Below, one piece after another: positions 4,382 through 57,732 of a DNA stretch of 64,000 bases. A program made the position numbers and the translations under genes. The DNA is from an uncultured Candidatus Saccharibacteria bacterium (GTDB lineage Bacteria; Patescibacteriota; Minisyncoccia; Minisyncoccales; Staskawiczbacteraceae). Positions within the stretch are counted from its first letter, which is position 1; every line of letters begins with the position of its first letter. The stretch is taken from positions 71,489 through 135,488 of the forward strand of contig CAYZNK010000002.1 in assembly GCA_964479955.1 (NCBI GenBank). The letters run 5' to 3'. The notes under the pieces were generated by a model, which saw nothing but the letters and a program-made list of their open reading frames with translations, was not told the origin of the DNA and ran no database searches.

Positions 4382-4452
4382 TGCGGGATCGTCTAATGGT
4401 AGGACATCGCCCTCTGGAGGCGAGTATCTTGGTTCGAATCCAAGTCCCGCAG
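4382..4452 (+). tRNA. tRNA-Gln(CUG)
   Basis: Acceptor tgcggga/tcccgca, anticodon arm tcgcc-ctCTGga-ggcga, T arm cttgg-ttcgaat-ccaag. 71 nt. Confidence 0.85.
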
Positions 4453-4454
4453 CA

Positions 4455-4619
4455 TTAGCAATCTTCAATATCTTTAGATATTGAAGATTGGTATTGTTAA
4501 GGCGGACTTTGTATGAGAACCAAGCCCCCGAATTGCGCCGAGCCAACAGGGAACCCCGCCACAGCGGGGCGAGGCGGCAATGCTTTCGAGAACTGCCTTC
4601 GAATCCAAGTCCCGCAGCA
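4455..4619 (+). repeat. tRNA-3'-end-associated hairpin element (copy at tRNA-Gln)
   Basis: Parts in order: a 15-bp AT palindrome (4459-4490), an inverted diverged copy of the tRNA-Gln 3' part, cccccgaattg, the hairpin cgaggc-ggcaat-gctttcg, then an exact 22-nt direct copy of the tRNA 3' end (4598-4619 = 4433-4454). Confidence 0.75.
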
Positions 4620-4739
4620 GTTTGAGTAAATTTTTAGGCGTTGCTAAATGCCTTAAAATTTACTCTTATAACAGCGGATTTTGTATAATAACCTTTAAAA
4701 TGGTTGAGTATATAATATTTCTATAGCGCGTTTTACTTT

Positions 4740-6954: not shown

Positions 6955-7134
6955 AGCGTGCTTTTCCGGGGTGGCTTGGCAGATTCTTACCCCTTGACAT
7001 GCCAGAAGGTTAGGACCCTCCAAATTTTCCTGACTTTCTTTTGCCAGCCACCCTTTTGTTCTTTAAGGTTCCGCCCTTGGGCGGGTCCATCTTGCCCCGG
7101 GCCGCTGTGTCTTTATGACCCAGCGGCCTTTTTT
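6955..7134 (+). ncRNA. candidate structured small RNA, class unknown
   Basis: GC-rich island in an AT-rich spacer. Contains the helix ggggtggcttggcag/ctgccagccaccc and the hairpin ccgccc-ttg-ggcgg. Terminator is ggccgctg...cagcggcc plus T6 (7099-7134). Confidence 0.45.
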
Positions 7135-7179
7135 GATGAAATCTGAAAAATCTCACAGATTTGATTTACAGACAAGGGA

Positions 7180-7207
7180 TTGACAATCTTTTTTGTTTTG
7201 GTATGAT
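7180..7207 (+). promoter_or_regulatory. sigma70-type promoter
   Basis: TTGACA, 16-nt spacer, TATGAT. Confidence 0.55.
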
Positions 7208-7213
7208 TAAGAT

Positions 7214-7362
7214 AAACATCCTTGTGGGTGTGCTGGCGAACGGCGCTTGGAGCCCTTGCGCAGCCCTAGGCAAGGGCTCCTCTTTGCACTTTTATATTTC
7301 CTAATCATTCCGCTTTGAGCGGATTGCGTTCATTCTGGGGGTGCTGAAAAGTTCAGTACCCC
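7214..7362 (+). ncRNA. candidate structured small RNA, class unknown
   Basis: Lies downstream of the promoter above. Hairpins ggagcccttgc...gcaagggctcc and ccgc-tttga-gcgg. Strong terminator gggggtgctgaa-aa-gttcagtaccccc plus T-run. Confidence 0.5.
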
Positions 7363-7406
7363 CTATTTTTTTATAAAAAAAAGAAATAAAATAAAACTTT
7401 TATCAG

Positions 7407-7435
7407 TTGACCAACCTATATTTTTTTGTTAAAAT
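7407..7435 (+). promoter_or_regulatory. sigma70-type promoter of the tRNA-Ile locus
   Basis: TTGACC, 17-nt spacer, TAAAAT. Confidence 0.5.
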
Positions 7436-7455
7436 TTAAACAGGTTTTGTTGCTT

Positions 7456-7482
7456 GGGCATTAATTCAGTGGTAGAACGCTG
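7456..7482 (+). pseudogene. tRNA-Ile 5' fragment (positions about 1-28)
   Basis: gggcattaattcagtggtagaacgctg versus the gene's gggcgattagttcagtggtagaacgctg (1 indel, 1 mismatch). Confidence 0.7.
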
Positions 7483-7502
7483 AACTGGTTAGTGGAAATG
7501 GT

Positions 7503-7577
7503 GGGCGATTAGTTCAGTGGTAGAACGCTGTCCTGATAAGACAGAGGTCAAAGGTCCGATTCCTTTATCGCCCACCA
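7503..7577 (+). tRNA. tRNA-Ile(GAU), CCA encoded
   Basis: Acceptor gggcgat/atcgccc, anticodon arm ctgtc-ctGATaa-gacag, T arm aaagg-tccgatt-ccttt. 75 nt. Confidence 0.85.
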
Positions 7578-7622
7578 TTTCCACTAAAAGCGCACATATA
7601 AAAAATAAATAAAAAAGCTTTG

Positions 7623-7663
7623 TAAGACAGAGGCCAAAAGTCCGATTCCTTTATCGCCCACCA
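7623..7663 (+). pseudogene. tRNA-Ile 3' fragment (positions about 37-76 including CCA)
   Basis: taagacagaggccaaaagtccgattcctttatcgcccacca has 2 mismatches to 7537-7577. Confidence 0.75.
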
Positions 7664-7688
7664 AAGTTTTAAAAAACAAAACAAAAAT

Positions 7689-8033
7689 ATGAACAAAAAA
7701 AATCTTATAATATTATTAGCTGTTTTGGTTTTAGTATTGATTGTGGGGTTATTTTTGTTTAAAACTTTTGAAAACAATAATTCTGGAGTTGAAAATTCAC
7801 TTGGCGGAGCCAATACAGAATCTTTAAATAATGAAGATGAAAATCAAAATGAGACAACGCCGCAAATACAGGTAGAAGCAGAAGGACAAACGGGTCAGGG
7901 GGAGCTTCTTATTTGCGTTGACGAGTGCGGAAACGGGATTTGCCAAGAGCCTGCCCCGGATTGCGGAGAAGATGGAACTTATAACTGCGTATGCCCGGAA
8001 AATCCAGAGATTTGTCCGCAGGATTGTAATTAA
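7689..8033 (+). CDS. secreted or anchored small protein with a Cys-rich C-terminal module
   Basis: 114 aa with a signal/anchor. There are 9 Cys in the last 40 residues (CVDECGNGICQ...CPENPEICPQDCN). A terminator follows at 8040-8062. Confidence 0.65.
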   Translation: MNKKNLIILLAVLVLVLIVGLFLFKTFENNNSGVENSLGGANTESLNNEDENQNETTPQIQVEAEGQTGQGELLICVDECGNGICQEPAPDCGEDGTYNCVCPENPEICPQDCN

Positions 8034-18768: not shown

Positions 18769-19776
18769 ATGACAAAGGTTGCCATAAATGGATTTGGCCG
18801 AATAGGCCGCCAAACTTTTAGAAGGATATTGGAAAATCATTTAGAGCTGGATGTTGTTGCCATAAATGATTTAACAGATAATAAAACACTGGCTCATCTT
18901 TTAAAATATGATTCTGTTTATAAGACGTTAGATAAAGATGTAGGTTATGAAGATGACGGCATCTTGGTTGACGGCAAAAAATACAAAACTTTTTCAGAAA
19001 AAGAGCCAGAAAATTTGCCGTGGAAAGATTTGGGGGTTGATATAGTTTTAGAGTGCACAGGTCTTTTCACAAAAGCAGAGGACGCAAGAAAACATATTAA
19101 AGCCGGAGCCAAAAAAGTGATAATGTCAGCTCCGTCAAAAGATAAAGAAACCCCAGGTTTTGTGCTGGGGGTAAACGCTGATAATTTTGACCCAAAAACA
19201 GTTGATGTTATGGATATGGGTTCTTGCACAACAAACTGCGTGGCCCCCATTTCAAAAGTGCTAAATGATAACTTCAAGATAGTTAAAGGGTTTATGACAA
19301 CAATTCATAGTTATACAAATGACCAAAGAATTTTGGATCTGCCCCACAAAGATTTGAGAAGAGCAAGGTCAGCTGCAATAAATATAATTCCAACATCAAC
19401 GGGAGCTGCCAAAGCTCTTGGTAAAATGATTCCGGAGCTTGACGGAAAAATGGACGGAATTTCGGTAAGAGTGCCCACCCCAACTGTTTCATTGCTGGAT
19501 TTGGTTGTTCAAACAGAAAAACCAGCCACAAAAGAGGAAGTTAATGAAGTTTTCAAAAAAGCCGGCCAGTCAAAAGAATTAAAAGGAATTTTAAAAATTG
19601 AAGAAAACGAATTAGTTTCTTCTGACTTTATAGGAGACAGTTATTCTGCAATAGTTGATTTGGCAGAAACAATGGTAAAAGATAATATGATAAAAGTTGT
19701 TGCATGGTACGACAATGAGCGGGGGTATTCGTGCAGATTAGCCGAGTTTGCGGAGTTTGTGGGAAAGAGGTTGTAA
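18769..19776 (+). CDS. gap: glyceraldehyde-3-phosphate dehydrogenase
   Basis: INGFGRIGR and SCTTNC motifs. Confidence 0.9.
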   Translation: MTKVAINGFGRIGRQTFRRILENHLELDVVAINDLTDNKTLAHLLKYDSVYKTLDKDVGYEDDGILVDGKKYKTFSEKEPENLPWKDLGVDIVLECTGLFTKAEDARKHIKAGAKKVIMSAPSKDKETPGFVLGVNADNFDPKTVDVMDMGSCTTNCVAPISKVLNDNFKIVKGFMTTIHSYTNDQRILDLPHKDLRRARSAAINIIPTSTGAAKALGKMIPELDGKMDGISVRVPTPTVSLLDLVVQTEKPATKEEVNEVFKKAGQSKELKGILKIEENELVSSDFIGDSYSAIVDLAETMVKDNMIKVVAWYDNERGYSCRLAEFAEFVGKRL

Positions 19777-19800
19777 ATATTTGTTAAAATGTAAAAAAAG

Positions 19801-19835
19801 AGCGCCCAGGTGCCATTTGGCACGGGGCGCTTTTG
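19801..19835. terminator. bidirectional terminator shared by gap and the minus-strand cassette
   Basis: An A-run, then agcgccc-a-ggtgcc-attt-ggcac-g-gggcgct, then a T-run. Confidence 0.7.
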
Positions 19836-19846
19836 GGTAGCGGTTG

Positions 19847-20728
19847 CTACATAATAGAGAGTATTTCAATCTCCTCTCGGAGATTGTTGATTTCATCTGA
19901 GAGAAGGGAAATGACTCCCTCTGTCTCAGTGATTTGGGTTTTCAACGATATGCATTCCATTGCATATTGACGGCGGACTGTTATTGATTTGGCTTGTCGG
20001 TTCCAATAGTATCCGGGTGAAACCCAACTTGTATGAGCGTTGCGGGCCGCTTGGAGCATCTTGCTCCTGAGTTCAGCCAAGGTTGTTCTTTCTTCCTTCA
20101 GCTGGTTTTCCAGGCGTAAAAGAAGAACTCTTTTTTCAATCGAGTTTTCAGTAGGCTCGTCTACGGGTCCGATTGTTGACTGGTAGAACCCGCCAGACAA
20201 TGCCGTTGAGATTTCCTCAACCGCAACCTTAACCCGAGGATGGAAGTCCATGGGTTTTGACCGGACTTCCGAAAAGAAAACTCGCACAGGCTCGTTCATC
20301 TGGCGCAAGCACCAGAGAACGCGTTCTTTCATCTTTGAATTTCCTGTCGCAAAAGCGTCTGTGAGCTCTGATACAGCCGCCAAGTTTATAAGCTGTACGG
20401 CTGCTTCCTTGGCAACAGCTCCGTTTGAATCTCCAAGCGCCAAAATCAGCTCTTGGGTGCTTGGCGGAACGCGTATTGCCACTGGCGCAACAGGAACTGT
20501 TGATGCACTTGACGCCGCAGGCTCTTCTGCTGGAGGCCTTTCTGCTGTTGCATATGACTCTGGCACTGCTGGGGCCGTCACTGTTTCCGACGACTCCGAA
20601 GAAGACTCTGGTTTGGCTGGCTCCTTTTTACCCGAGCACGATTGCATGACTGCAAAAAGAATAACAATCAGCACGGCTATGCCTATCCAAGTCTTTTTAC
20701 TGAACAGGTCCACTTTCGGCAGTTTCAC
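19847..20728 (-). CDS. orphan lipoprotein-like protein with a HEAT-like repeat and C-terminal coiled coil (GC-richer cassette)
   Basis: 293-aa ORF in a visibly GC-richer block. GTG start is preceded by aaggagag. Has a signal/anchor ending in ...MQSCSG, a Pro/Ala/Ser/Glu-rich linker and an LILALGDSNGAVAKEAAVQL HEAT-like segment. Confidence 0.7.
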   Translation of the reverse strand: MKLPKVDLFSKKTWIGIAVLIVILFAVMQSCSGKKEPAKPESSSESSETVTAPAVPESYATAERPPAEEPAASSASTVPVAPVAIRVPPSTQELILALGDSNGAVAKEAAVQLINLAAVSELTDAFATGNSKMKERVLWCLRQMNEPVRVFFSEVRSKPMDFHPRVKVAVEEISTALSGGFYQSTIGPVDEPTENSIEKRVLLLRLENQLKEERTTLAELRSKMLQAARNAHTSWVSPGYYWNRQAKSITVRRQYAMECISLKTQITETEGVISLLSDEINNLREEIEILSIM

Positions 20729-20798
20729 TTTGACTCTCCTTATTGTGAATGTGCACAGGGGAAAACACCCCTAAATTTGACTTTTCATCTATATATTT

Positions 20799-20827
20799 AT
20801 CATATCATATTTTTAATTGTTTGTCAA
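20799..20827 (-). promoter_or_regulatory. sigma70-type promoter of the 19847..20728 cassette
   Basis: On the minus strand: TTGACA, 17-nt spacer, TATGAT. Confidence 0.6.
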
Positions 20828-20923
20828 TAGGTAAGATAGAAAGTTGTAAATATGGCATATGTGCATAATTCTGTTTGTTTGTTTTTGTTGTTTTTGTTAA
20901 AATATAATAATTTATAAAATAAT

Positions 20924-21493
20924 ATGAAAATCCAAGTTGAAGTTTCAGCCAGACACATACATATATCAGAAAAAGACGCAAAAATTATTTTTGGAGAAGA
21001 TTTTGAATTAACAAAACTAAAAGACCTTAGCCAGCCTTCTGAATTTGCGGCCAATGAAGTTTTGGATATTGAGGCAAATGGAAACAGAATTTCTAATATA
21101 AGGATTGTTGGTCCCGAGAGGGAAAAAACACAAATAGAGATAAGTAAAACAGATGCGTTTTACTTGGGTATAAACCCGCCCTTAAGATTGTCCGGGGATA
21201 TAGACGGCTCTGCGGGAATAAAAATAATCGGGCCAAAAGGGGGGCTGGAATTGCAGGAAGGGGTGATTATTGCAAAGCGACACATTCATTGCAACAAAGA
21301 CGAGGCCGATAGTTTAAAAATAAAAAACAATGATATTATCTCTGTTAAAATTGAAGGGGATAGAGCAGTTGTTTTTGAAAATGTGGCGGTAAGGGTTGGA
21401 GATAATTATAAGCTATCAATGCATATAGATACAGATGAAGGAAATGCCGCTGGAATTGACAAAATCGGCAGTGGTATAATTTTAAAAATTTAA
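20924..21493 (+). CDS. pduL: phosphate propanoyl/acetyl-transferase PduL
   Basis: Duplicated SARHIHIS / KRHIHC motifs. Confidence 0.8.
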   Translation: MKIQVEVSARHIHISEKDAKIIFGEDFELTKLKDLSQPSEFAANEVLDIEANGNRISNIRIVGPEREKTQIEISKTDAFYLGINPPLRLSGDIDGSAGIKIIGPKGGLELQEGVIIAKRHIHCNKDEADSLKIKNNDIISVKIEGDRAVVFENVAVRVGDNYKLSMHIDTDEGNAAGIDKIGSGIILKI

Positions 21494-21518: not shown

Positions 21519-22535
21519 ATGATACTTGTTTTAAATTGCGGAAGCCAATCCGTTAAATGGAAAATTTTTAGCGATAAATTAGAGCTTATAAGGGAAAATA
21601 AACTGGAATTTTTTGATATGTCTGATTTTGAAAGGATTTTAACCGATGAACTTTTAAAAATAAAGGAGGATGTTTCTTTGGTCGGGCACAGGGTTGTTCA
21701 TGGGGGTGAAAAATTCAGAAATCCCGCAGAAATAACAGATGAAACCTTAGAAGAGCTGGAGAAAATCAGTCATTTGGCGCCCCTACACAACCCTTATAAT
21801 ATTTTGGGAATTAAAATTTGCAAGAATATTTTTAAGCAAGCAAAACATATTGCTGTTTTTGATACGGAATTTTTTGCTGATTTGCCGGAGTACGCCCGTA
21901 CTTATGCTTTGCCAGAGTCAGTTTTAAAAGAACTTGGGATAAAAAAATATGGATTTCAGGGGATTTCCCATGAATATGTTGCCCAAAAAGCCGCTGAAAA
22001 ATTAGGAAGGCCGATTGAAGAATTAAGGATAATCACTTGCCATTTAGGCGGAGGGGCAAGTGTTTCTGCTGTTAAAAACGGGAAAGCAATTGATACCTCA
22101 ATGGGTTTTACTCCCCTGGAAGGGCTTGTTATGATGACAAGGTCCGGCAATATTGATGCGGGCATTGTATTTTATTTGGTAGAAAAATTTTCATTGGATA
22201 AAACCAAGGAAATTTTAAACAGAGAGTCAGGGATAAAAGGAATTTGCGGAGAAAGCGACATGCAAAAATTATTAAAAAGAATTGATGCCGGAAACAAGAA
22301 AGCTGAGCTGGCTTTTGATATTTTTGTCTATTCAATTAAAAAATATATCGGTGCATATTATGCTATTTTGGGGGGATGCGATACTTTGGTTTTTACCGGA
22401 TCTGTTGGTTCGGGAAACCCCAAAACGCGCGAGGCGGTTTGTAAAAATTTAAGTATTTTGTCTAATACAAAAATTTTATCAATTGAAACAGATGAAGAAT
22501 TGGCAATTGCCCAAAAAATTAACTCCGTTAAATAA
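21519..22535 (+). CDS. ackA: acetate kinase (short form)
   Basis: ILVLNCGSQSVKW start, HRVVHGG and ITCHLGGGASV motifs. 338 aa. Confidence 0.8.
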   Translation: MILVLNCGSQSVKWKIFSDKLELIRENKLEFFDMSDFERILTDELLKIKEDVSLVGHRVVHGGEKFRNPAEITDETLEELEKISHLAPLHNPYNILGIKICKNIFKQAKHIAVFDTEFFADLPEYARTYALPESVLKELGIKKYGFQGISHEYVAQKAAEKLGRPIEELRIITCHLGGGASVSAVKNGKAIDTSMGFTPLEGLVMMTRSGNIDAGIVFYLVEKFSLDKTKEILNRESGIKGICGESDMQKLLKRIDAGNKKAELAFDIFVYSIKKYIGAYYAILGGCDTLVFTGSVGSGNPKTREAVCKNLSILSNTKILSIETDEELAIAQKINSVK

Positions 22536-35713: not shown

Positions 35714-36094
35714 ACATATATAACAATTAAAAACATAAAGACAAAATCACTATATATTCTTCCCGTCATTGCGGGATCCCCCGCTAAGCGGGGGAAAAAC
35801 TAAACAGCGTTTTAAGAATATCCGTGAAGGCAGGTTTTAAAGGTCTGTCTTCACGGGTATTTTTTCTTCTTGGCTGAACGGAAAGCCTTTTGATAATTGA
35901 ATAATGGAAACCAGTTTTAAAAACTGGGAAAAAATTGAATTAGCGGAGTGTCCACAGTACTGAAAATTTCTACGAAAATTTTAGCGCTGAGAGAATTCAC
36001 TTCGTGTAATTCGTTTCTTAAAGTTGTTTCGAATCAAAGCTTGTCGAGTGCTTAACTCGACAGTAGTTTATTCTAACTAGAGTAATCAACTTTT

Positions 36095-37556
36095 TTTTGA
36101 GAGTTTGATCCTAGCTCAGGGTGAACGCTGGTAACGTGGATACCGGCATGCAAGTCGAGCGGACCGCAAGGTCAGCGGCGAACGGCATAGTAACACGTGG
36201 GTACAAACCCTTTTCTCGGGTATAGCCAGCCGAAAGGTTGGGTAATTCCCGATAGTTCTCGCAAGAGTAAAGTCGCAAGACGGAAAAGGATTGGCCCGCG
36301 GCCTATCAGATTGTTGGCAGGGTAACGGCCTACCAAGTCTATGACGGGTAGGGGGCGTGAGAGCGCGACCCCCATGAATGGCACTGCGACACGGGCCATA
36401 CTCCTACGGGAGGCTGCAGTCGAGAATCTTCCGCAATGGGCGAAAGCCTGACGGAGCGACGTTACGTGAATGAAGAAGCCCTTCGGGGTGTAAAGTTCTT
36501 TTATGTGGGAATAAGTTATTGAAGGTACCACATGAATAAGAGGATCCTAATTCTGTGCCAGCAGGAGCGGTAATACAGAATCCTCAAGCGTTACCCGGAT
36601 TTATTGGGCGTAAAGGGTCCGTAGGTGGTAAAGTAAGTTTTGAGTTAAACCTCATCGGCTTAACCTTTGAGCTATTCAAAATACTGCTTTACTTGAGGGC
36701 GTTATGGGTGAACGGAACCGACGGAGTAGGGGTGAAATCCGTTGATATCGTCGGGAACACCAAAAGCGAAGGCAGTTCACTGGGGCGACCCTGACACTGA
36801 GGGACGAAAGCGTGGGTAGCAAAAAGGATTAGATACCCTTGTAGTCCACGCCGTAAATGATGAATACTAGCTATTGGCAGTGTCGACCCTGCCAGTGGCG
36901 AAGCTAACGCGTTAAGTATTCCGCCTAGGAAGTACGGTGGCAACACTAAAACTCAAAGGAATAGACGGGGACTCACACAAGCGGTGGACCATGTGGCTTA
37001 ATTCGACAACAAACGAAGAACCTTACCAGGTCTAGAAATCTGCATGAAAGCCTTCAGAAACGTTGGCCCTTCACAAGACATGCAGACAGGTGCTGCATGG
37101 TTGTCGTCAGTTCGTGTCTTGAGACGTACCGTTAATTCGGGTAACGAACGCAACCCTTGCCGTGTGTTTTAAATGTCACACGGGACTGCCCGAGATAATT
37201 GGGAGGAAGGCGAGGATGACGCCAAATCAGCATGGCCCTTTGATGACCTGGGCCGCACACGTGGTACAATGGCCGGTACAATGGGTTTCGATGCCGCAAG
37301 GCGGAGATTAATCTCATCAAAACCGGTCTCAGTTCGGATTGAGGGCTGAAACCCGCCCTCATGAAGCTGGAATCGCTAGTAATCGCCAATCAGCTATGTG
37401 GCGATGAATACGTTCCTGAGTCTTGTACTCACCGCCCGTCAAGCCAAGCGAGCTGGGGATAGCCGAAGTGCCCGCAAGGGCCCTAAGCTAGATTCAGTAA
37501 GAGGGGCTAAGTCGTAACAAGGCACGGCTAGCGGAAGCTGGTCGTAGATCATTTTT
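36095..37556 (+). rRNA. rrs: 16S rRNA (stand-alone; no linked tRNA or 23S)
   Basis: Starts near gagagtttgatcctagctcag and ends ...aagtcgtaacaaggcacggctagcggaagctggtcgtagatcattttttt. Flanked by a processing stem (36013-36036 pairs with 37690-37713) and a terminator at about 37762-37790. Confidence 0.9.
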
Positions 37557-37840
37557 TTAAAATTTTGTATAGAAACCTTTTGGTTTATATACAAAATGGA
37601 ATGTAGTCGGCTCAGAGTGATTCGATAAACTCAGTTCGATGAGTATATCGAATTGTTCTGAAGCATTTTAGCAGATTTGCTTGAAAATCGCATTCGAAAC
37701 AACTTTAAGAAACTAATTTTTCCACAGAAAAATTATCCTGAGATTTTCGAAGGGTAAGACATTACTCCGTCAAAAGCGGAGTTTTGTTTTGATTAAGGTT
37801 GTTCTTGAAAATTAGTTGGAAAAGAATTAAGCTATCTTAT

Positions 37841-42056: not shown

Positions 42057-43073
42057 ATGAGTAATGTTGTTTCCACAAAGTCTGTAGAAGAAGCGAAACC
42101 CGTTCACCCGTTGGCTAATTTTATGCCAACATCTTTCCAGTCGTTTGACGATTGGCTTGCAAGGTGGAATAGTGCTACAGTTACGCAGGAAAGATTGGGA
42201 TTGCTTCATTGTATGCAAACTATTGAATATTGGCTTGAGAAAACCGAGCAATCCGTGTTTTTTCTTCTTGACGTAGCTAACGGATGGGAAACAGGAAACC
42301 CTTTTCGTTGTTATCATCGTCATTACAATGCTGATGACATCAATAAGAGTCGCGAAATCATTTCGCGCAAGGCATTTGATGTCTTATGCGTTAAATTGTT
42401 TGCTTCTGGCAAACAAGATTACCCGCCTTTATGGTGGTGGATGTTGGAAAAACAAGAGACTTTTGACAAACTTCTTAACTTTTGCGGCCCCGAAGCTAGG
42501 AATTATTATAAACCGTTTGCAGGAGGGCAGGTGAGCCACCAGGTGGAGGTGTATGGCAGTTTTCTGCAAGAGTTTAGCCGTTTGGGATGGACTTATTCGC
42601 GGCGCTCCAATAGACAAGGCGAGGTTGCAAACGAGGATGAAATTCGGGCGCGCCTTGTTGCTGCCCGACCTCAATTTATAGATATCCTTAGGTATTTGGG
42701 TCAACTTAATTGGCTTAATCGGCCGATGGGTTGTTATGGTGGTGACTTTCCAGAGCTTGATAAACCCTCTATTAGTAAATTGAGGGAAATCGTTTTTGAG
42801 ACAGAATTATTGCTCCCCCCACAGGATTTTCATTCGCCGGCAGAGCATAGCCGTAAGCCGAAGAATTTGCGCGAAGCTATTCTCGGAGCTTCTGTTGCTG
42901 CAGAAGTTCTTGTATTAAATGATATCCGTCTGGCAGAGCGCAATAGAATTAAGGCAGCTTGGAGAAAATCTAGGCGCAAACACGAAAATATGGAACGTAT
43001 AAGCCGCCTGGAAAAAATTGAAAAAGCAAAAAGGACTTTGGATGAGGAGGCCGCGCGGCTTACCGGCCAATAG
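42057..43073 (+). CDS. orphan hypothetical protein (GC-richer cassette)
   Basis: 338-aa ORF with tgggag 7 nt before the ATG. Trp-rich with a basic coiled-coil tail. Terminator cctccgc...gcggagg plus T7. No family recognised. Confidence 0.7.
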   Translation: MSNVVSTKSVEEAKPVHPLANFMPTSFQSFDDWLARWNSATVTQERLGLLHCMQTIEYWLEKTEQSVFFLLDVANGWETGNPFRCYHRHYNADDINKSREIISRKAFDVLCVKLFASGKQDYPPLWWWMLEKQETFDKLLNFCGPEARNYYKPFAGGQVSHQVEVYGSFLQEFSRLGWTYSRRSNRQGEVANEDEIRARLVAARPQFIDILRYLGQLNWLNRPMGCYGGDFPELDKPSISKLREIVFETELLLPPQDFHSPAEHSRKPKNLREAILGASVAAEVLVLNDIRLAERNRIKAAWRKSRRKHENMERISRLEKIEKAKRTLDEEAARLTGQ

Positions 43074-44932: not shown

Positions 44933-45235
44933 ATGGAATTTACTATCAATAATATAGAAGAAAATGTTGTAGTTGTTGCCAGGAGAATTGGTTATTTGAT
45001 TATTGATACAAAAGAAAATGGGGAATATAATTTAGTTAGGAGATTAACGCAGGGAAATTATCCAAGGTTTCATATTTACGCAAAAGTTCAGGGAGATAAA
45101 TATATTTTTAGTTTGCACTTAGACCAAAAAGCTCCCATATATAAAGGGAGTCATGCGCACAGCGGAGAATATGCCGGGCCTGTTGTGGACGCTGAAGCAG
45201 ATAGAATTTGCGAAGTGTTAGGAAAATCAGAATAA
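44933..45235 (+). CDS. hypothetical protein
   Basis: 100-aa ORF with AT-rich backbone composition. No family recognised. Confidence 0.55.
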   Translation: MEFTINNIEENVVVVARRIGYLIIDTKENGEYNLVRRLTQGNYPRFHIYAKVQGDKYIFSLHLDQKAPIYKGSHAHSGEYAGPVVDAEADRICEVLGKSE

Positions 45236-45370
45236 AACCCTATCACCAATTTCAGCCAAGTTAAAAGGTAAGATATACTTTGAAGGCGAAGTGCCTTCGG
45301 CTGTTAATTTTGTAATATAAAGTCAGCGGTGAAATTGGTGAGGGGTTATTGCGACGGTAAGGTATAAATC
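45236..45370. repeat. hairpin-core element, copy A
   Basis: About 80% identical by eye to 57591-57732. Terminal inverted repeat is aaccctatcaccaatttc / gaaattggtgaggggtt, and the inner hairpin is gaagg-cgaagtg-ccttc. Confidence 0.75.
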
Positions 45371-45499
45371 CTTCGACTTCGCTCAGGCCTTCGGCTCTGA
45401 TAGTCTCGGACTCGAAGAGATATTTTCTGCGGAAAATAAAAGCCCTGCAAACCGTAGAAGAGCAGTGAGCAGGGCATAAAGAAGGATGAATCCGACGGA

Positions 45500-45823
45500 T
45501 TATTCAACGTATCCGCAAGAGTTTTCAATGGAGTAGTAAAGAGTGATTTCTGCACCCTCCTTGATCTTTTCGTGACAGAATTCTCCTTTGCAAGATAATC
45601 CTTTTATCCTGCAGACCAATTTGAAAAGCTGGAATTTGGTTTCGTCAAAGACGATAGACATCACCTCTGCTGAAATGGCAGTTGACTTCTCCTGATAAGA
45701 CAGGAAGAAAACAGGAAGATTTCCGGGACGCCTTTTAATGAGGGCTTCCCATAAGGGTAGGTTGGTTGGACCGTCTTTGACCAAGATTTTTTCCGTTTCT
45801 ATTTCCAATGCGGCGTTACTCAT
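45500..45823 (-). CDS. orphan hypothetical protein (GC-richer cassette)
   Basis: 107 aa with agggaga 5 nt before the ATG. Terminator gccctgc...gcagggc plus T-run at 45440-45478 (minus strand). Confidence 0.65.
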   Translation of the reverse strand: MSNAALEIETEKILVKDGPTNLPLWEALIKRRPGNLPVFFLSYQEKSTAISAEVMSIVFDETKFQLFKLVCRIKGLSCKGEFCHEKIKEGAEITLYYSIENSCGYVE

Positions 45824-47001: not shown

Positions 47002-47688
47002 ATGACATATAGTGAATGGTTTTTATCAATTATCCAGCCGTTTTTGCAGGAATTTATATTCTTTTTGGCTAATTTGTTATTAGCTATTATTGTTTTCGTA
47101 ATAGGATATCTGATTTCTGCTGGAATTGGGAAATTGATATCAGAAATATTAAGAAGCCTAAGGTTTAACAAGCTCTTTGAAAAAGAGGGATGGAGAAAGG
47201 CATTGCAAAGGGCAAACATAGAGGTTAACCCTGCCGAATTTATAGGGGCAATTTTCAAATGGATTTTTGTGGTTGTTTCTTTGGCAGTTGCCGTTGATGT
47301 TTTAAACCTTACAATGTTTACAGGGCTTTTGACGCAGGTGATTAATTACTTGCCAAACCTGATTGCAGCCGTATTGGTATTTATTGTTGCAATAATCATT
47401 TCTGATATTATAGAAAAAATTGTCAGGATTACAGTTGAAAGATTAAAAGTAAATTATGGATATGTTGCTTCGTCAATTGTAAAATGGGCAATTTGGGTTT
47501 TTGCTTTTTTCTTGATATTGGACAGCCTTTTGCCTGCATCTCTTTTGGTTAAAACCTTGTATACCGGAATAGTTTACGGAGTAATAGGAGCTTTGGCATT
47601 AGGCATTGGATTGGCAATTGGACTGGGCGGAAAGGAAACTGCCGCAAAAATTATTTCAGAAATGCACAGAAGGTTTGAAGAAAGATAA
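47002..47688 (+). CDS. membrane protein with TM-helix repeats (mechanosensitive-channel-related pattern)
   Basis: 228 aa with 5-6 TMs. Tentative family call. Confidence 0.45.
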   Translation: MTYSEWFLSIIQPFLQEFIFFLANLLLAIIVFVIGYLISAGIGKLISEILRSLRFNKLFEKEGWRKALQRANIEVNPAEFIGAIFKWIFVVVSLAVAVDVLNLTMFTGLLTQVINYLPNLIAAVLVFIVAIIISDIIEKIVRITVERLKVNYGYVASSIVKWAIWVFAFFLILDSLLPASLLVKTLYTGIVYGVIGALALGIGLAIGLGGKETAAKIISEMHRRFEER

Positions 47689-47921
47689 AACATAGATATT
47701 TGACTGCCTCATTATTTTGAGGCTTATAAAAGATAAACGCTCTCCTTAAAGATTTTGGAGAGTGAAACAAAAAGACGCGTACGTACCGCGCCTTTTTGTT
47801 TATATCCATACTACATTTTATTGTGCGATAGCTGTCAAATTCATTTAGAATTTTGAAAACAAAAAGAGAGCTGGTCAGTGCTCTTATTGTTTAACGACCG
47901 GCAACTTACTGTCGCCTTGAT

Positions 47922-48068
47922 TTAATCAGGAAGTAAAGCGCCGCACCTGTTGCAGGAATGCAACACTCGGCCGTACTTATATCGATGGGGGATTGGCGTG
48001 TGGTATCCGCCATTGGGACAGCCACAAAGCCATACAACACGAATGTACTCCCAAATCTTTTTTAGCAT
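47922..48068 (-). CDS. orphan 48-aa zinc-ribbon-like peptide (GC-richer cassette)
   Basis: Own translation: MLKKIWEYIRVVWLCGCPNGGYHTPIPHRYKYGRVLHSCNRCGALLPD*. aaaggaaaa lies upstream. Minus-strand terminator is agagc-actgacca-gctct plus T-run. Below the ORF-track size cutoff. Confidence 0.4.
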   Translation of the reverse strand: MLKKIWEYIRVVWLCGCPNGGYHTPIPHRYKYGRVLHSCNRCGALLPD

Positions 48069-48345
48069 GGCAGTTTTTCCTTTCTTGTTATAGAAAATTT
48101 GACTCGCCGATATGTGGTTGGTAGATTAACTACTATTAAGTTAATAATATCATATATAAAATACTTTGTCAATAGTAAATTTAAGATTGAGAAAGATTAA
48201 AAATTTAAAATTCCGACTGAACACAGCGGGGGCGGTTTGGCTATTGAGTCTTCACCATTTGTAACGGAGAACTTGCGATAGGTGTTTAAACAAACCTTGT
48301 AAATAGCAATACCATAGATTTTTTTCATTGGGAAATGGTGAAGAC

Positions 48346-48374
48346 TTGACAGGGGTTTAAAAATAAATTAAGAT
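48346..48374 (+). promoter_or_regulatory. 23S-5S rRNA promoter
   Basis: TTGACA, 17-nt spacer, TAAGAT. The right arm of a 14-bp inverted repeat abuts the -35 element. Confidence 0.55.
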
Positions 48375-49020
48375 ATAATTACATGATGAAAAAACAAACC
48401 AATAAATTTAACAAAACAAGCGGATGATTGTCTGACTTTTTGTGTTAGTAGATGACCGCTTGAATAAGCGGTTTTAAATTTATTGAAAATCAGTTTGCCG
48501 GCGATTGAAAATATAAATTGTTTTCAGCCGCGGGTTAATTGATTGAAGCGGAAGCAAAGATTGCTTTTTGAAAATTTAACCCTGTTAAATGTTTTAAATA
48601 ACAAATTGCCTACCAGCAATTTTTAACAGGTTCTTCCCAATTAATTTTAGACATGGGGTCTTTTTAATTGGGGAAAGTAGGTAAGTCCTGTTAAAATTTT
48701 AACAGGATAAAGCATAAAATTAAGTTCACATTTGCGTTGATGATTCAGCGCAAAAAAGTAAACTTACGCAAAAAGATAAGCTTAACAATTAAGTTTATCG
48801 AAGGATAGGTTATAAGCGAATGGCGGATGCCTTGGGATATTGATGCGATGAAGGACGTGGCGTGCCTGCGATAAGCATCGGGGAGGTGGCTAGCAACCTT
48901 TGATCCGGTGATTTCCGAATGGGAAAACCTTATTGTGTTAATCCACAATAACCCCGCCTTGGCGGGGAGCGTACCCGGTGAAGTGAAACATCTCAGTAGC
49001 CGGAGGAAAAGAGAACAAAA

Positions 49021-49289
49021 GTCCTACAACTTACAAATTTTATCAATTTAGCGAAGCGAATTTTGAGACAAATTCGCGACGCGAGGAGCAGTGCGTGCCA
49101 AGTGGCACGAGAGCGACGAAGCAACAAAGAATTTGGCCAAAATTCGTTCGCCCGAAGGGAAACGAAAAAAATGGCTGATTTCTTTGTTGCAACTTCGTTA
49201 ACGTAGTTAACACTATGTTTCCTCGTTGCGCCTCGAAATCATCACATTTTTTCGTTTCTAAATATGACGAAATTTGTAAGTTGTAGGAC
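49021..49289 (+). other. 23S insertion sequence 1 (IVS-like), closed by a 20-bp perfect helix
   Basis: gtcctacaacttacaaattt (49021-40) pairs with aaatttgtaagttgtaggac (49270-89). It lies between GAGGAAAAGA and AGTAGTGGCGAGCGAA. Confidence 0.75.
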
Positions 49290-49346
49290 AAGTTATATCC
49301 TTAGTAGTGGCGAGCGAAAAGGATACAGCCTAAACTAATTTTTTTA

Positions 49347-49505
49347 CACCGCTACTTTTTGATAATTTTCGTAACGAAATAAAATAATTTTGCGCGAGAA
49401 TTTGGAAATGCAAGGAGGTTTGCCAAGTGGCAAGCCGACGAGCAGTTACAAATTTGTAGCCGAAATTATTAATTGCAGTAGAAAAGTTATCAGAAAGTAG
49501 CGGTG
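49347..49505 (+). other. 23S insertion sequence 2 (IVS-like), closed by a 19-bp helix
   Basis: caccgctactttttgataa pairs with ttatcagaaagtagcggtg (one G-U pair). It shares a gccaagtggca...cgacga.gca block with insertion 1. Confidence 0.7.
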
Positions 49506-49861
49506 AAATTAGGGTTGTAAGGTTGTAGCGTCAGGAGCGTTATTTATTCTTCGTATAGTCGAAGAACGAATAATGCTTGCTGAGAGAGAAAATTTAGATA
49601 AAGGTTTTAATAGAAGCACTCTGGAAAGAGGCGCCATAGAAGGTAATAGCCCTGTATATAAAAAAACTATTTATGCTCTTTGCTATGATACTTGAGTACT
49701 GTCGGGCATGATAACCTGGCAGGAATCTACCGGAACTATCCGGTAAGGCTAAATAATCAATATCACCGATAGTGAACCAGTACCGTGAGGGAAAGGTGAA
49801 AAGCAGGGGGTTGACCCCGATGAAATAGTACCTGAAACCATTTGCTTACAAAGAGTCGGAG

Positions 49862-49943
49862 GTCTTCACCTTTTGGGTGTTGAGTTTAATTGTGGAACAA
49901 AACAATTTCCACAAAAATAATTTGACCTTCAAAAGGTGAAGAC
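49862..49943 (+). other. 23S insertion sequence 3 in the helix-25 region
   Basis: gtcttcacctttt pairs with aaaaggtgaagac, a 13-bp perfect stem. Confidence 0.7.
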
Positions 49944-50586
49944 TGACGGCGTGCTTTTTGTAGAACGAGCCAACGAGTTTGAATAATCAATAGTCTAAGC
50001 CCTTACGGGGCGGAGGCACAGCGAAAGCGAGTGTTAAAAGCGCGAAAAATTATATTGGTTGTTCAAGACCCGAAGCCAGACGAGCTTACCGCGAGCAGGA
50101 TGAACCCGGGCGAAAGCCAGGGGGAGGTCCGAACCAGTGAGTCGTGCAATTCTCTTGGATGACTTGTGGTAAGGAGTGAAAAGCTAATCGAGTTTGGTAA
50201 TAGCTGGTTCTTCCCGAAACAGCTTTGGGGCTGGCGTGTACAAACTATTTTCCGGGGGTAGAGCACTGAATAGAATTCCGTGGAGTTTCTCCAGGTCTTC
50301 TAATCAAACTCCGAATACCGGAAAAACTATGTATGCAGTAAGAACGCGGGGGCTAAGCTCCGCGCTCAAAACGGAAACAGCCGAGATCATCGTCTAAGGT
50401 CCCTAAATTAGGCTAAGTGCTAAGAAGGAGGTATTTTACCCTTGACAGGCAGAAAGTTAGCTTAGAGGTAGCTATCTTTTAAAGAGTGTGTAACAACCCA
50501 CTGCCCAAACTTTCCCGCTTGCGGGAGAGAGGGGTGAGATGCGCCAAAGATTTCCGGGGCTAAAGTCTAATACCGAAGACATGGAT

Positions 50587-50712
50587 TCATTCGCATCACA
50601 CTGCGTGTGATGTTAAATGACCAAAAACCAAAAACCAAAAATATTTAATATTTTGGGATTTGAGAATTGGAATTTGGGAATTTAAGCATCGTGCGAAGCG
50701 CGATGCGAGTGA
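50587..50712 (+). other. 23S insertion sequence 4 in the helix-45 region
   Basis: tcattcgcatc pairs with gatgcgagtga. It contains a CA-repeat / UG-repeat hairpin (50621-50683). Confidence 0.65.
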
Positions 50713-51003
50713 GTGGTAGGGAAGCATTCTGAGGGCATTGAAGCAGGAGGGTAACCGACTGTGGAGCGCTCAGAAGAGAGAATGTTGGCCTGAGTAACCG
50801 CATTGCGCGTGAAAGCCGCGCACACCGAAAGTCCAAGGTTTCCTTGGCAATGGTATTCAACCAAGGGTTAGGCGGTCCTAAGGCAAACCTGAAAGGGGTA
50901 GCTGACGGACAGTTGGTTAATATTCCAACCCTTTTTTATCCGTTCAATAAAGTGCGGAATTTAGTAGGTAAAGCGATTTATTGGATTATCGTTGTTAGTC
51001 AGA

Positions 51004-51030
51004 CCTGTCTGCCGTCAGGCAGGCGCAAGA
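51004..51030 (+). repeat. CCTGYCTG...CAGGCAGG palindromic element, copy inside 23S
   Basis: cctgtctg-ccgt-caggcagg-cgcaaga. Confidence 0.6.
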
Positions 51031-51420
51031 ATGGCTAACGGAAGGTCTCTTTATGGGGCTGACTTTACTGAGCAAGTTTCCAAGAAAAGCTTTATTTAAA
51101 TAGGATAAAGAAACCGTACCGTAAACCGACACAGGTGGACAAGCGTAAGTATGCTAAGGTGAACGGGTGAAACCTCGTTAAGGAACTCGGCAAATCAGTG
51201 GCCGTAAGTTCGCAATATGGCCTGCCCGACACGCAAGTGTTTAGGGCTGCAACAAACGTACTTCAACCGACTGTTTATCAAAAACACAGCTCTCTGCTAA
51301 CTCGTAAGAGGATGTATAGGGGGTGAGGCCTGACCAGTGTTGGAATGTTAAGTTTGGGGGTCCAAGCCGCAAGGTTTGGGCTCACTGAATGAAGCACCAA
51401 TGAACGTCGGCGATAACTAT

Positions 51421-52151
51421 AGACTGACGATTGTAGTTATAAAATTTGGCTATATGCTGGAAACTCCGGGTATGTTGAACTACTATCCGTTACTATGATA
51501 AAATATATAGTAATGGAAGTAAAAATGTTTAAACGCGGACAATCAGCAGGAAAGACTTTTGACGAGAAACTCGCTAACTACTTGAGCGGTTTTACTGATG
51601 GCGAAGGAAGCTTCAATATTTCAGTAATTAATCGTGAGAAAGACTATAAACACGGCTGGAAAATCAGCTTGTGTTTCAATATTTCTCAAAAAGATGACAC
51701 AATACCAAGATTATTTAAGGATTTTCTTGATTGCGGTAAAATAAGATACCGCAAAGATGGAATTTGTTATTTTGATGTTAGAAAAACAAAAGATTTAACA
51801 AATATTGTTGTGCCATTCTTTAAAAAATTTCCAGTGCGTTCAAAGAAAAATGAAACTTTTCAGATTTTTTGTGAGGCGTTGGAGATTGTTAAATGTAAAA
51901 AACATTTAACAAAATCCGGAATGAAAAAAATTCTGGATTTGAGAAATAAAATTGTAGTTGGCAGAAAAAGAAAGTATACAAATTCAGAGATACTTTCTAC
52001 TTATAATCAAAAGAATCCTCAGAGACTATACGCCAAACCCCGCTTAGCGGGGAAGATATAGTCCGACCTGCATAGCGATATGCAGAATATAATAGAAATA
52101 TTATATCAAGATACTAAAACTGACTTAATTTAGTATTAGTAACATAAAAAG
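51421..52151 (+). mobile_element. group I intron in the helix-69 loop (after the U equivalent to E. coli U1917)
   Basis: The exon ends ...gataactaT and resumes aatcgtccaaaggtagcg. Intron guide gtagttat (51433-40) pairs with the 8 exon nt ataactat via G-U at the splice site. The intron ends in G and has the core motif aagatatagtccgacc. Confidence 0.8.
51495..52061 (+). CDS. LAGLIDADG homing endonuclease (intron-encoded)
   Basis: YLSGFTDGEGSFNISV motif. The ORF lies inside intron 1 and ends within the core motif. Confidence 0.8.
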   Translation: MIKYIVMEVKMFKRGQSAGKTFDEKLANYLSGFTDGEGSFNISVINREKDYKHGWKISLCFNISQKDDTIPRLFKDFLDCGKIRYRKDGICYFDVRKTKDLTNIVVPFFKKFPVRSKKNETFQIFCEALEIVKCKKHLTKSGMKKILDLRNKIVVGRKRKYTNSEILSTYNQKNPQRLYAKPRLAGKI

Positions 52152-52815
52152 AATCGTCCAAAGGTAGCGTAATCCCTTGCCGGGTAAGTTCCGGCCCGCA
52201 TGAATGGCTTAACGAGTTGAAGACTGTCTCAACGAGGTGCCCGGTGAAAATGCAATAGCAGTGAAGATGCTGCTTACCTGCGGCTAGACGGGAAGACCCC
52301 GGAAGCTTTACTGTAGTTTGATATTGGGTTATGGTTTTTAATGCGTAGCGTAGTGGGGAGGATATGAAACGGCATTTTCGGATGTCGCGGATCCGCCAAT
52401 GAAACACCCATCTTTGGGAATTATAATTCTAATCCACGCCTCAACGGCGGGTGACAGTGTTAAACGGGCAGTTTAAGTGGGGCACTTGCCTCCTAAAAAG
52501 TAATGGAGGCGTTTAAAGGTCAGCTAGCTTCGGATGGAAATCGAAGCGATAGTGTAAAGGCAAAAGCTGGCTTTACTGCAAGACGGCTATGTCACGCAGT
52601 TGCGAAAGCAGAACTTAGTGAACCGACTTGTTTTTATAGAAAACAAGAAGATCATCAGCCAAAAGCTACTCCGGGGATAACAGGCTGGTAGAGCCCGAGC
52701 GTCCATAGCGACGGCTCTGTTCGGCACCTCGATGTCGGCTCAACTTATCCTGGGGCTGGAGCAGGTCCCAAGGGTCCGGCTGTTCGCCGGTTAAAAAGTT
52801 ACGCGAGCTGGGTTC

Positions 52816-52846
<31 letters not shown>

Positions 52847-52884
52847 ACCGCAGGCGTTGAGTTTTGAGGAGATTTGTTCCTAGT

Positions 52885-53985: not shown

Positions 53986-54098
53986 CCGGTGGCGACTATG
54001 CTGGAGTTGTCCCACCTGATCCCATTCCGAACTCAGAAGTGAAATACTCTAAGGCCGATGGTAGCGCTTATGCGCGAGAGTAGGTAGTTGCCACCAGA
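53986..54098 (+). rRNA. rrf: 5S rRNA
   Basis: ccggtggcgactatgc...cccattccgaactcagaagtgaaa...gtaggtagttgccaccag. Confidence 0.85.
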
Positions 54099-57590: not shown

Positions 57591-57732
57591 AACCCCATCA
57601 CCAATTTCATTCAAATAAAAGGTAAGACATAGTTTTGAAAGGCGAAGCGCTTTCGGCTGTCAGTGTTGCGATACAAAGTCAGTGGTAAAATTGGTGAGGG
57701 GTTTTGCGGCGGTAAATGTAATTATCCGCCGC
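57591..57732. repeat. hairpin-core element, copy B
   Basis: Terminal inverted repeat aaccccatcaccaatttc / aaaattggtgaggggtt and inner hairpin gaaag-gcgaagcg-ctttc. Homologous to 45236-45370. Confidence 0.75.

Follow-up and report, generated by a model that had tools for sequence, protein, structure and literature searches.

The messenger RNA (mRNA) of lpp has been described as extensively base-paired, and S-layer genes fit the same pattern. Another group of envelope proteins, represented by TonB/TolA and the prophage Ltp-type exclusion lipoproteins, carries an N-terminal anchor, then an extended spacer rich in Pro, and a helical interaction domain at the far end. In E. coli, lpp is constitutively transcribed, its mRNA is stable (half-life about 10 min) and its protein is very abundant (PMC5924895). 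Here we describe a 293-amino-acid (aa) minus-strand gene, called gene X, located between gap and pduL in a 64,000-nucleotide (nt) stretch of DNA (the window) from an uncultured Candidatus Saccharibacteria bacterium (assembly GCA_964479955.1, contig CAYZNK010000002.1), and compare it with these systems. Taken as a whole, we find it somewhat probable that X is an old, lineage-restricted accessory gene that sits in a fixed slot, maintains an elevated GC content at third codon positions (GC3), has a densely paired mRNA and encodes an envelope protein. Below, W denotes the window locus, L001-L095 denote related loci and P-numbers denote proteins.

The window resembles a genome of the Candidate Phyla Radiation (CPR)/Patescibacteria, with about 36% GC and genes almost all on the plus strand. 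Gene X is antisense to the direction of the surrounding operon and is flanked by gap (18769-19776, plus strand) on one side and by pduL (20924-21493, plus strand) and ackA (21519-22535, plus strand) on the other; pduL and ackA were identified by their Pfam matches (PTAC and Acetate_kinase, respectively). The features of the locus are given below in the order of transcription of X, with protein features taken from an AlphaFold (AF2) model and its predicted local distance difference test (pLDDT).

20799..20827, minus strand: sigma-70-type promoter, with the -35 TTGACA at 20827-20822, a 17-nt spacer and an extended -10 TGaTATGAT (TATGAT at 20804-20799)
20757..20772, minus strand: hairpin AGGGG-TGTTTT-CCCCT (AGGGGTGTTTTCCCCT) in the untranslated 5' leader (5'-UTR), some 20 nt inward of the transcript's predicted 5' end
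20734..20741, minus strand: Shine-Dalgarno (SD) sequence AAGGAGAG, 5 nt before the GTG, read from the sequence
19847..20728, minus strand: coding sequence (CDS) of gene X, 293 aa, GTG start, GC 0.49, GC3 0.48, from the open reading frame (ORF) list
20636..20698, minus strand: N-terminal transmembrane (TM) helix or signal anchor, aa 11-31, in the AF2 model, ending ...VMQS-C31 (lipobox-like)
20462..20635, minus strand: Pro/Ala/Ser/Glu-rich disordered linker, aa 32-89, pLDDT < 60
20195..20461, minus strand: conserved helical module, aa 90-178, two PBS-type HEAT-like repeats with capping helices, pLDDT about 97
19853..20149, minus strand: C-terminal antiparallel coiled-coil hairpin, helices aa 194-233 and 242-292, AF2 pLDDT about 95
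19794..19831, both strands: hairpin terminator common to X and the convergent gap, with U7 on the minus strand and UUUU on the plus strand

Gene X is a genuine protein-coding gene under purifying selection, two to three times looser than that acting on its neighbors. Substitutions between X and its orthologues were most frequent at codon position 3, followed by positions 1 and 2, and the ratio of nonsynonymous to synonymous divergence (dN/dS) was 0.21-0.26, compared with 0.07-0.15 for gap, pduL, ackA, ppdk and a GILT-like gene. The NCBI gene call for this protein (P0001) begins at an internal GTG and has 275 aa, while the 293-aa start lies at 20728 (the difference being 20674-20728). We favor the upstream start because of the promoter, the SD and conservation among orthologues, L003 having an ATG at the homologous site behind the same SD. 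A hidden antisense gene was also considered for a 174-aa plus-strand ORF and judged unlikely; this length is expected by chance in the antisense frame of a GC-rich gene, and the codon signature of the sense frame is clear.

The promoter matches the consensus at 11 of 12 positions in addition to its TGn extension and was the top promoter-like site between 18.5 and 21.6 kb. It was kept in all five aligned loci (W, L001, L003, L005, L006), with the -35 invariant and the -10 and spacing conserved. A leader hairpin of 5-6 bp was present at the equivalent place in the same five loci, a set of sequences too small for statistical support, and its stem varied (AGGGA/TCCCT in L003, ATGGA/TCCAT in L005, AAGGGG/CCCCTT in L006). 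The whole leader was not more stable than shuffled sequences (z about -0.6), and the hairpin had no Rfam match. GGAG-type SDs were found at the equivalent place in the X orthologues. Downstream, the terminator hairpin (19801-19831) folded with -28.4 kcal/mol (z -6.3) when read on the minus strand and with -32.0 kcal/mol (z -4.7) on the plus strand, and a similar hairpin followed by a T-run was observed downstream of X in L003 and L005; a simple terminator scan did not have the X/gap hairpin among its listed sites. An initial annotation of this DNA, made from the letters and an ORF list, had described a 293-aa minus-strand ORF with a TTGACA-17-TATGAT promoter, a hairpin in a leader of about 75 nt, a strong SD ahead of a GTG and a bidirectional terminator shared with gap. 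Each element was present and small corrections sufficed. The hairpin lies at 20772-20757, the leader measures about 60-65 nt from the predicted transcription start (the value of about 75 counts from the -10 hexamer), and the shared terminator is reasonable given a stable hairpin with a U-run on either strand. The best-supported reading of these signals is a self-contained monocistronic unit with its own promoter, 5'-UTR hairpin, strong SD, CDS and strong terminator, and the view of X as a real, self-contained minus-strand gene is supported.

The AF2 model of the X protein was built from a 29-sequence alignment and had a mean pLDDT of 84. The linker is of low complexity and varies in length across the family, with GC contents of 0.66-0.67 at first and second codon positions (GC1 and GC2). 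The helical module carries the signature LIxxLxxxDGxxAxEAAxRL...KxRxLWCLxxMGEPxR...NPxxxxP. A family profile matched alphaRep chains in the PDB (E = 9e-17, 2e-8 and 6e-6) over two repeat units, the first two of these matches at profile positions 96-160, and it also retrieved genuine multi-HEAT_2/HEAT_PBS proteins (E = 4e-9 to 1e-3) from a library of 1.8 billion proteins. The X protein itself had no hit at E <= 1 to Pfam HEAT_2 (PF13646) or HEAT_PBS (PF03130), and the best family member (P0010) scored 16.8 bits, below the HEAT gathering cut-off of 27.7. The top Foldseek hits were alphaRep and CpcE/F (probability 0.9-1.0), though short of significance, with a best E of 0.015 and low TM-scores from a query model of several domains; the coiled-coil part gave generic coiled-coil matches only. 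The order proposed in the initial annotation, a signal or anchor followed by a Pro/Ala/Ser/Glu-rich linker, a HEAT-like segment and a C-terminal coiled coil, was thereby recovered in full, the HEAT-like segment through the profile matches to alphaRep and the coiled coil as two long antiparallel helices in the model.

Close homologues of X are few, with only five found among 5.8 billion proteins. An exhaustive profile search added about 25 relatives of similar size that share the order TM anchor, linker, HEAT-like module and coiled coil, all of them named 'hypothetical protein'. When the 29-sequence profile was used for a further search, matches to low-complexity words dominated and no additions were made. 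Searches of Pfam, NCBIfam and PDB with the single X protein returned nothing meaningful, and Foldseek comparison of two AF2 models with the PDB and a viral library gave no full-length analogue. A related-locus search with a 5-sequence alignment returned four metagenome loci and zero viral ones, and no X homologues were found in IMG/VR, in GenBank phages (tblastn) or in PLSDB plasmids (tblastn). Rfam returned nothing over the X region, either at the gathering threshold or at E <= 1. The homology and structure searches together identify HEAT-like repeats by profile, and no named family for the whole protein.

The X product is very probably anchored in the membrane with its bulk outside the cytoplasm, as judged from the charges around the TM helix. 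In W, the net charge is +4 on the N side of this helix and -1 on the C side, and in nearly all of the 29 family members the N-flank carries +2 to +5 and the C-flank about 0. An N-in/C-out orientation is predicted because such flanks follow the positive-inside rule, and the surface exposure proposed in the initial annotation is therefore plausible. Its label of lipoprotein was examined with a PROSITE-type lipobox pattern, {DERK}(6)-[LIVMFWSTAG](2)-[LIVMFYSTAGCQ]-[AGS]-C, which places the Cys at position 15-35 and asks for K/R close to the N-terminus. The W protein fits this pattern (...IVILFA-VM-Q-S-C31; K2 and K5 are the basic residues). In close orthologues the -2 position of the lipobox is K, E or N, or the -1 position is K, and many family members lack a Cys altogether. 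Because the pattern occurs in only 5 of the 29 members, 'lipoprotein' does not describe the family, and the label is weak. A different feature was observed in eight distant members (P0012, P0014, P0015, P0016, P0023, P0024, P0026, P0027), which end in a short Pro-rich tail containing one or two Cys and basic residues (...SCPP, ...CCR, ...SCRYR, ...QCR, ...YCPPRGPWYSKR). This tail, which is not found in the clade of the window, may be a sorting or anchoring signal.

Gene X was observed in the same slot between gap and pduL in every relative with readable context, including members only 24-35% identical. All 11 loci of the X family that were analyzed agree with this slot: both flanks or the gap-side genes are visible in six and a single flank in three, while the remaining two either give no information or have an island in between; the same-slot loci include L001, L003/4, L005, L087, L093 and L094. 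Between W and L001, the synonymous divergence (dS) of X was 0.50 and that of the neighbors 0.52-0.98, and across the family the identity of X correlates with that of PduL (Spearman 0.44, p = 0.02). The pattern is, as read from these alignments, one of vertical co-inheritance combined with fast protein evolution, two to three times faster than in the neighbors. In five loci (L007, L010, L013, L014, L015), gap abuts pduL without X, across a spacer of about 14-190 nt. These X-less loci belong to the nearest species-representative genomes (Ca. Staskawiczbacteria and other Patescibacteria), and the family hidden Markov model found no X member in 80 representative loci anchored on pduL. X is accessory or dispensable because nearby genomes have gap directly beside pduL, and the distribution suggests an old gain followed by losses. 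The initial annotation regarded X as a cassette wedged between gap and pduL; it is indeed an additional gene compared with several related genomes, but its conserved synteny does not fit a recent cassette.

Two further observations were made on the sequence of X and its borders. Across X (W 19847-20728 vs L001:10043-10924), dS is mosaic, at 0.16-0.35 in the TM, linker and HEAT-like parts and 1.31 in the coiled coil; recombination within the gene, or constraint on synonymous sites of its 5' part, could account for this pattern, which is based on small codon numbers. An AT-rich direct repeat with 16 of 18 nt identical occurs after the gap stop (19780-19797) and before the pduL start (20893-20910); by a rough estimate about 0.2 such border repeats are expected by chance, and it is not evidence of a target-site duplication. 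No integrase or recombinase, tRNA or significant repeat was found at the borders of X in the window.

The composition of X stands out against the rest of the window. Its GC is 0.491 and its GC3 about 0.48, compared with means of 0.36 and about 0.31-0.33 for the window ORFs, making X the GC-richest ORF with the exception of spurious ORFs in rRNA and a 113-aa ORF at 57.7 kb. The deviation that the initial annotation had left to be quantified is therefore real, and it has two components. From the amino acids of X a GC of 0.42 is expected, against 0.36 for the backbone and 0.49 observed, so that amino acids explain about half of the excess. The rest lies in codon usage, with a GC3 of 0.478 where 0.335 is expected for the same amino acids under backbone codon usage. 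Arg codons are 75% CGN (14% in the backbone), Leu is encoded by CTC and CTG where the backbone has TTA and TTG, and GAG and AAG are doubled. At eight of nine loci with scorable neighbors, the GC3 of X (0.38-0.58) exceeded that of the neighbors (0.22-0.39) by 0.14-0.25, and the excess was present also between pairs with saturated synonymous sites. No GC3 spill into the ends of the flanking genes was found; the anomaly is confined to the CDS. The GC3 excess is a maintained trait, not a residue: because it is undecayed across saturated synonymous divergence, it is not a decaying foreign signature.

Folding of the X mRNA was compared with three nulls, namely dinucleotide shuffles, synonymous-codon permutation (protein and codon usage fixed) and permutation within 40-codon blocks (regional composition kept). 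For X in the window, z was -8.0, -5.3 and -4.8, respectively. In ten of eleven orthologues, z lay between -3.6 and -12.3 when dinucleotide shuffles were the null and between -4.5 and -8.5 for synonymous permutation, and block-restricted permutation of six orthologues gave -4.5 to -7.8 (controls -0.6 to -2.0). Eleven control genes of the window ranged from +1.3 to -3.75. An ORF at 42057-43073 (338 aa, GC 0.44, GC3 0.40, no Pfam hit) did not have an unusually structured mRNA (z -2.2, block-restricted -0.6). The X mRNA reached -307.5 kcal/mol, compared with -227.5 +/- 7.6 for the same protein in backbone codons, and this gain of 80 kcal/mol is divided between codon choice (40.5) and codon order (39.5). 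The fold consists of numerous short local hairpins (7-14-bp stems, 3-5-nt loops, median pair span about 25 nt), in which, for example, rare Leu-CTC codons pair with Glu-GAG codons. The segment 19801-20100 ranked second of 319 minus-strand 300-nt segments for folding excess, behind 23S rRNA. Conserved helices with compensatory changes that were suggested by eye did not pass a formal pair count on two hairpins, and covariation was not significant. What is conserved is dense pairing as such and not particular helices, which turn over between orthologues.

The gene, its architecture, its synteny, its maintained GC3 and its excess folding are shown by these comparisons, and they can be joined into the following proposal. 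X would belong to a Staskawiczbacteria-like group of Patescibacteria, a placement based on the similarity of PduL and Gap to those of Ca. Staskawiczbacteria. In this group it would be inherited vertically with occasional loss or replacement. Its product would be a single-pass membrane protein with the N-terminus inside, in some lineages perhaps lipid-anchored at the Cys after the helix. The Pro/Ala-rich spacer would hold the HEAT-like module and the coiled-coil hairpin off the membrane, outside the cytoplasm. This architecture is of a protein-binding or scaffolding type, and the protein would most likely act as a surface adaptor or scaffold, possibly contacting host or partner cells. The GC-rich island would have two causes, the Pro/Ala-rich amino-acid composition and a deviant synonymous codon choice and order that maximizes pairing within the transcript. 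By analogy with lpp and S-layer genes, heavy pairing together with the 5' hairpin and the terminator may give a nuclease-resistant, long-lived mRNA, which in turn would permit a high and steady output of the envelope protein.

Several observations weigh against this proposal. We infer the longevity of the mRNA, the abundance of the protein and its extracellular role from the features above, which counts against the proposal for the first two, and the topology is predicted solely by the positive-inside rule. L094 has the GC3 excess without a folding excess (z -0.6), and in L095 folding is strong with a GC of only 39%; the link between GC excess and folding is therefore partial. The folding excess is nearly symmetric between the strands (mean -48 vs -42 kcal/mol), and the inverted repeats may have arisen at the level of DNA or by mutation. 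No consensus structure was obtained over 11 X sequences (structure conservation index, SCI, about 0), and within the close clade an SCI of 0.29 at 59% nucleotide identity was not clearly above controls. In the pair count, the two best-conserved 3' hairpins did no better than shuffled sequences (82% vs 80.6% paired); the native value was reached by 82 of 500 shuffles, and only a single double-sided change was seen. The leader hairpin, at about 20 nt from the predicted 5' end, lies beyond the position of classical 5' stabilizers. The folding trait also extends beyond X, as seen in a radical-SAM gene of L011 (z -5.7/-4.4) and one window control (-3.75); the TM/coiled-coil gene that occupies the slot of X in L011 has an mRNA z of -3.6/-4.1. 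Finally, X-bearing and X-less genomes interleave on a tree of PduL, a single 190-aa protein with little resolution (monophyly in 0 of 100 bootstraps). Since the X-bearers are not monophyletic, their distribution calls for losses or for transfers into this one slot.

Some of these points would also be expected if the GC3 excess and inverted repeats were a by-product of local mutation or recombination, with the mRNA not being the target of selection. Processes that could act in this way are template switching at quasi-palindromes, GC-biased gene conversion at a hotspot and an effect of head-on orientation. The near strand symmetry, the turnover of helices, the absence of significant covariation, the location at an insertion hotspot (see below) and the nature of the helices, mostly perfect short palindromes with 3-5-nt loops, all agree with such a process, and the mosaic dS between W and L001 (low in the 5' two-thirds, high in the coiled coil) hints at intragenic recombination. 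However, the effect ends at the CDS borders without spilling into the GC3 of gap or pduL only 70-200 nt away, and prfB, the other minus-strand gene, has normal GC and a z of +1.3. Less constrained GC-rich orphan ORFs nearby are unstructured, and the sense strand has the larger folding excess in 8 of 10 orthologues. We consider a mutational by-product unlikely, while giving it the most weight among the alternatives.

A related possibility, slightly less likely still, is that the transcript itself is the object of selection, with dense hairpins in the ~0.9-kb mRNA kept by codon choice and order across a family of about 30% identity while individual helices turn over. X would then be an 'RNA-structure island' that mimics horizontal transfer, serving either extreme mRNA longevity in a slow-growing, RNase-poor episymbiont or, in a more radical version, a dual-function RNA with a separate role for its folded form.

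The DNA around X in relatives bears on whether X belongs to a mobile element. The spacer between X and gap is, as judged from its contents across the related loci, an insertion hotspot that collects islands: variable DNA always lies on the gap side of X, and the side between X and pduL is constant. In L088 (L088:1894-7661) and also L089, the gap side carries genes for a tyrosine recombinase (305 aa), an AAA_13 ATPase (759 aa) and a pair of N6/N4 DNA methyltransferases, an island that looks like a defence or restriction-modification-like module. An orthologous recombinase follows X in L090-L092 (L090:1620-2537), and it is 92% identical between L088 and L090, while the adjoining X proteins are just 41% identical. 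In L087, X and gap are separated by a 590-nt spacer. GC-rich ORFs of 57-58% GC (GC3 0.71-0.75) adjoin X at L003:5110-5625 / L004:3309-3842 and at L090:2975-3433 / L092:2925-3440, in contigs of roughly 35% GC; they have no Pfam hit, their mRNA is unstructured, and they look like truly foreign insertions at the hotspot. The idea that these ORFs of L003/L004 and L090-L092 are relatives of one another or share the folding trait was rejected, as they are unrelated and unstructured, and so was the idea that the whole island is GC-rich, the recombinase, AAA_13 and methyltransferase genes of L088 being at backbone GC. In L011 (L011:2532-5835, from a metagenome-assembled genome of Ca. Staskawiczbacteria), the slot upstream of pduL is occupied by another antisense gene, which is GC-richer and encodes a TM/coiled-coil protein of 188 aa, and by a 153-aa polytopic membrane protein; gap is a 23-aa remnant, and a GC-rich radical-SAM/SPASM gene lies nearby.

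X could accordingly be imagined as the edge gene of an integrative element or island, of a lysogenic-conversion or superinfection-exclusion type, with the spacer as attachment site and X as the sole remnant in the window. The recombinase islands after X in L088/L089 and L090-L092, the 58%-GC ORF after X in L003/L004 and the long spacer of L087 would fit, and the layout of anchor, linker and helical domain recalls that of prophage exclusion lipoproteins. Yet the recombinase and cargo are missing from most X loci and are at backbone GC, and the disparity between X (41%) and recombinase (92%) identities shows that they do not co-evolve as one element. The restriction of variable DNA to the gap side fits islands inserting beside a resident gene, and X has no phage, viral or plasmid homologue. 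On these grounds an edge-gene origin appears improbable.

Turning to the protein, a cytoplasm-facing, membrane-tethered scaffold similar to EzrA or DivIVA-type division or envelope organizers was weighed against the preferred extracytoplasmic placement. HEAT-like repeats and long coiled coils are commoner in cytoplasmic proteins, the lipobox is not conserved, and there is no evidence of a cleavable signal. The positive charge that precedes the TM helix in almost every member argues the other way, as do the Pro-rich low-complexity spacer and the fast, lineage-specific evolution, which are typical of wall-spanning or surface proteins, and we judge an inward-facing scaffold quite improbable. Lower again we place the view that the selected object is RNA, either a non-coding or dual-function RNA or an antisense 'excludon' insulating gap from pduL-ackA, with the ORF secondary. 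In AT-rich genomes, structured RNAs classically stand out as GC-rich islands, the folding excess of X is on a par with that of rRNA- or tRNA-containing segments, and the orientation is antisense; against these stand the clear coding signature, the conserved protein domain, and the lack of an Rfam match, of a family-wide consensus structure and of covariation.

The least probable reading, and one now largely refuted, is the recent foreign origin proposed in the initial annotation, in which X is cargo between gap and pduL whose GC is the unameliorated signature of a GC-richer donor: the atypical composition and codon usage, the gap-pduL junctions without X in five loci, the patchy distribution on the PduL tree, the gene's own promoter and terminator and the AT-rich direct repeat at both borders are outweighed by a slot that is identical in all readable relatives down to about 30% identity, a dS equal to that of the neighbors, a GC3 excess across saturated divergence (the opposite of amelioration), the lack of homologues outside the lineage or in viral, phage and plasmid collections, and the lack of a flanking integrase, tRNA or significant repeat in the window. 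Synteny was thus found to be conserved as for a resident gene, while the composition is not backbone-like, and of the proposed 'surface-exposed protein of foreign origin' the exposure is plausible and the recent foreign origin is not supported; the suggested role as cell-cell interaction cargo is a guess.

Elsewhere in the window, a GC-rich patch (0.51) at 57682-58023 contains a 113-aa ORF with no Pfam hit and folds well on both strands (z about -4.3 and -4.6). No Rfam family was found for it at E < 0.01, and it may be an undescribed or divergent structured RNA. In the minus-strand scan, other segments with a folding excess (-22 to -30 kcal/mol) were 45201-45500, 7001-7700, 4401-4700, 1201-1500 and 47601-48900; several of them adjoin tRNA genes or the 5' flank of the 23S rRNA, and those at 45.2 kb and 7.0-7.5 kb are unexplained. 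The 23S rRNA (48803-52881) exceeds the Rfam model in length by about 1.15 kb and holds a LAGLIDADG endonuclease ORF at 51495-52061 (Pfam E = 4e-23). A second LAGLIDADG ORF (53040-53519) lies between the end of the 23S and the 5S (53988-54096). The 16S (36093-37559) is unlinked from the 23S, with about 11 kb of genes between them that include a minus-strand tRNA-Ala, and is also unlinked from the 5S. Such an arrangement of rRNA genes is typical of CPR genomes.

Gene X provides a counter-example to the use of GC and codon deviation as evidence of foreign origin, and island predictors would mis-call it. If selection for mRNA pairing is true, X would be an unusually strong gene-specific case in bacteria, with about 40 kcal/mol from codon order and about 40 from codon choice, and the pairing would bear on how ultra-small CPR cells achieve a high and steady output of envelope proteins. 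The X family also consists of fast-evolving membrane-anchored proteins, the kind expected in surface or partner-cell contacts of episymbiotic Patescibacteria, where few such factors are known.

Compared with the systems introduced above, X shares with lpp the character of a small monocistronic envelope-protein gene with a strong promoter and terminator and an N-anchored coiled-coil product. The mRNA traits of the lpp and S-layer type (strong promoter, 5' stem-loop, extensive pairing, strong terminator) are found in X by computation only, and the stability and abundance that were measured for lpp contrast with a gene known here from its sequence. There is no relationship to lpp in sequence or fold; X has a HEAT-like module and a long spacer, and its lipobox is not conserved. 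The overall layout of X is also that of TonB/TolA and the Ltp-type lipoproteins, a resemblance for which no homology was detected. To our knowledge CPR cells are without an outer membrane for a TonB/TolA role, and X, unlike the Ltp-type genes, is not in a prophage. X resembles genomic islands in its atypical GC and codons, its presence/absence polymorphism, its own promoter and terminator and its place beside an island hotspot, but it differs from them in being syntenic, in co-diverging with its flanks and in maintaining its composition. The closest likeness of the protein itself is to HEAT_PBS/HEAT_2 proteins, alphaRep and CpcE/F, with which its central ~65 residues share two ~31-residue repeats on the alphaRep consensus. 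In contrast to HEAT_PBS/HEAT_2 proteins, X has only two repeats, with family-specific caps (K-x-R-x-LWCL-xx-MGEP ... NP-xxxx-P), and the module is without a lyase or other enzymatic context; it is instead fused to an anchor, a spacer rich in Pro and a coiled-coil hairpin, and its predicted location is outside the cytoplasm. The X protein is in this sense a new variant that has no annotation but combines parts already known, namely PBS-type HEAT-like repeats and a coiled coil.

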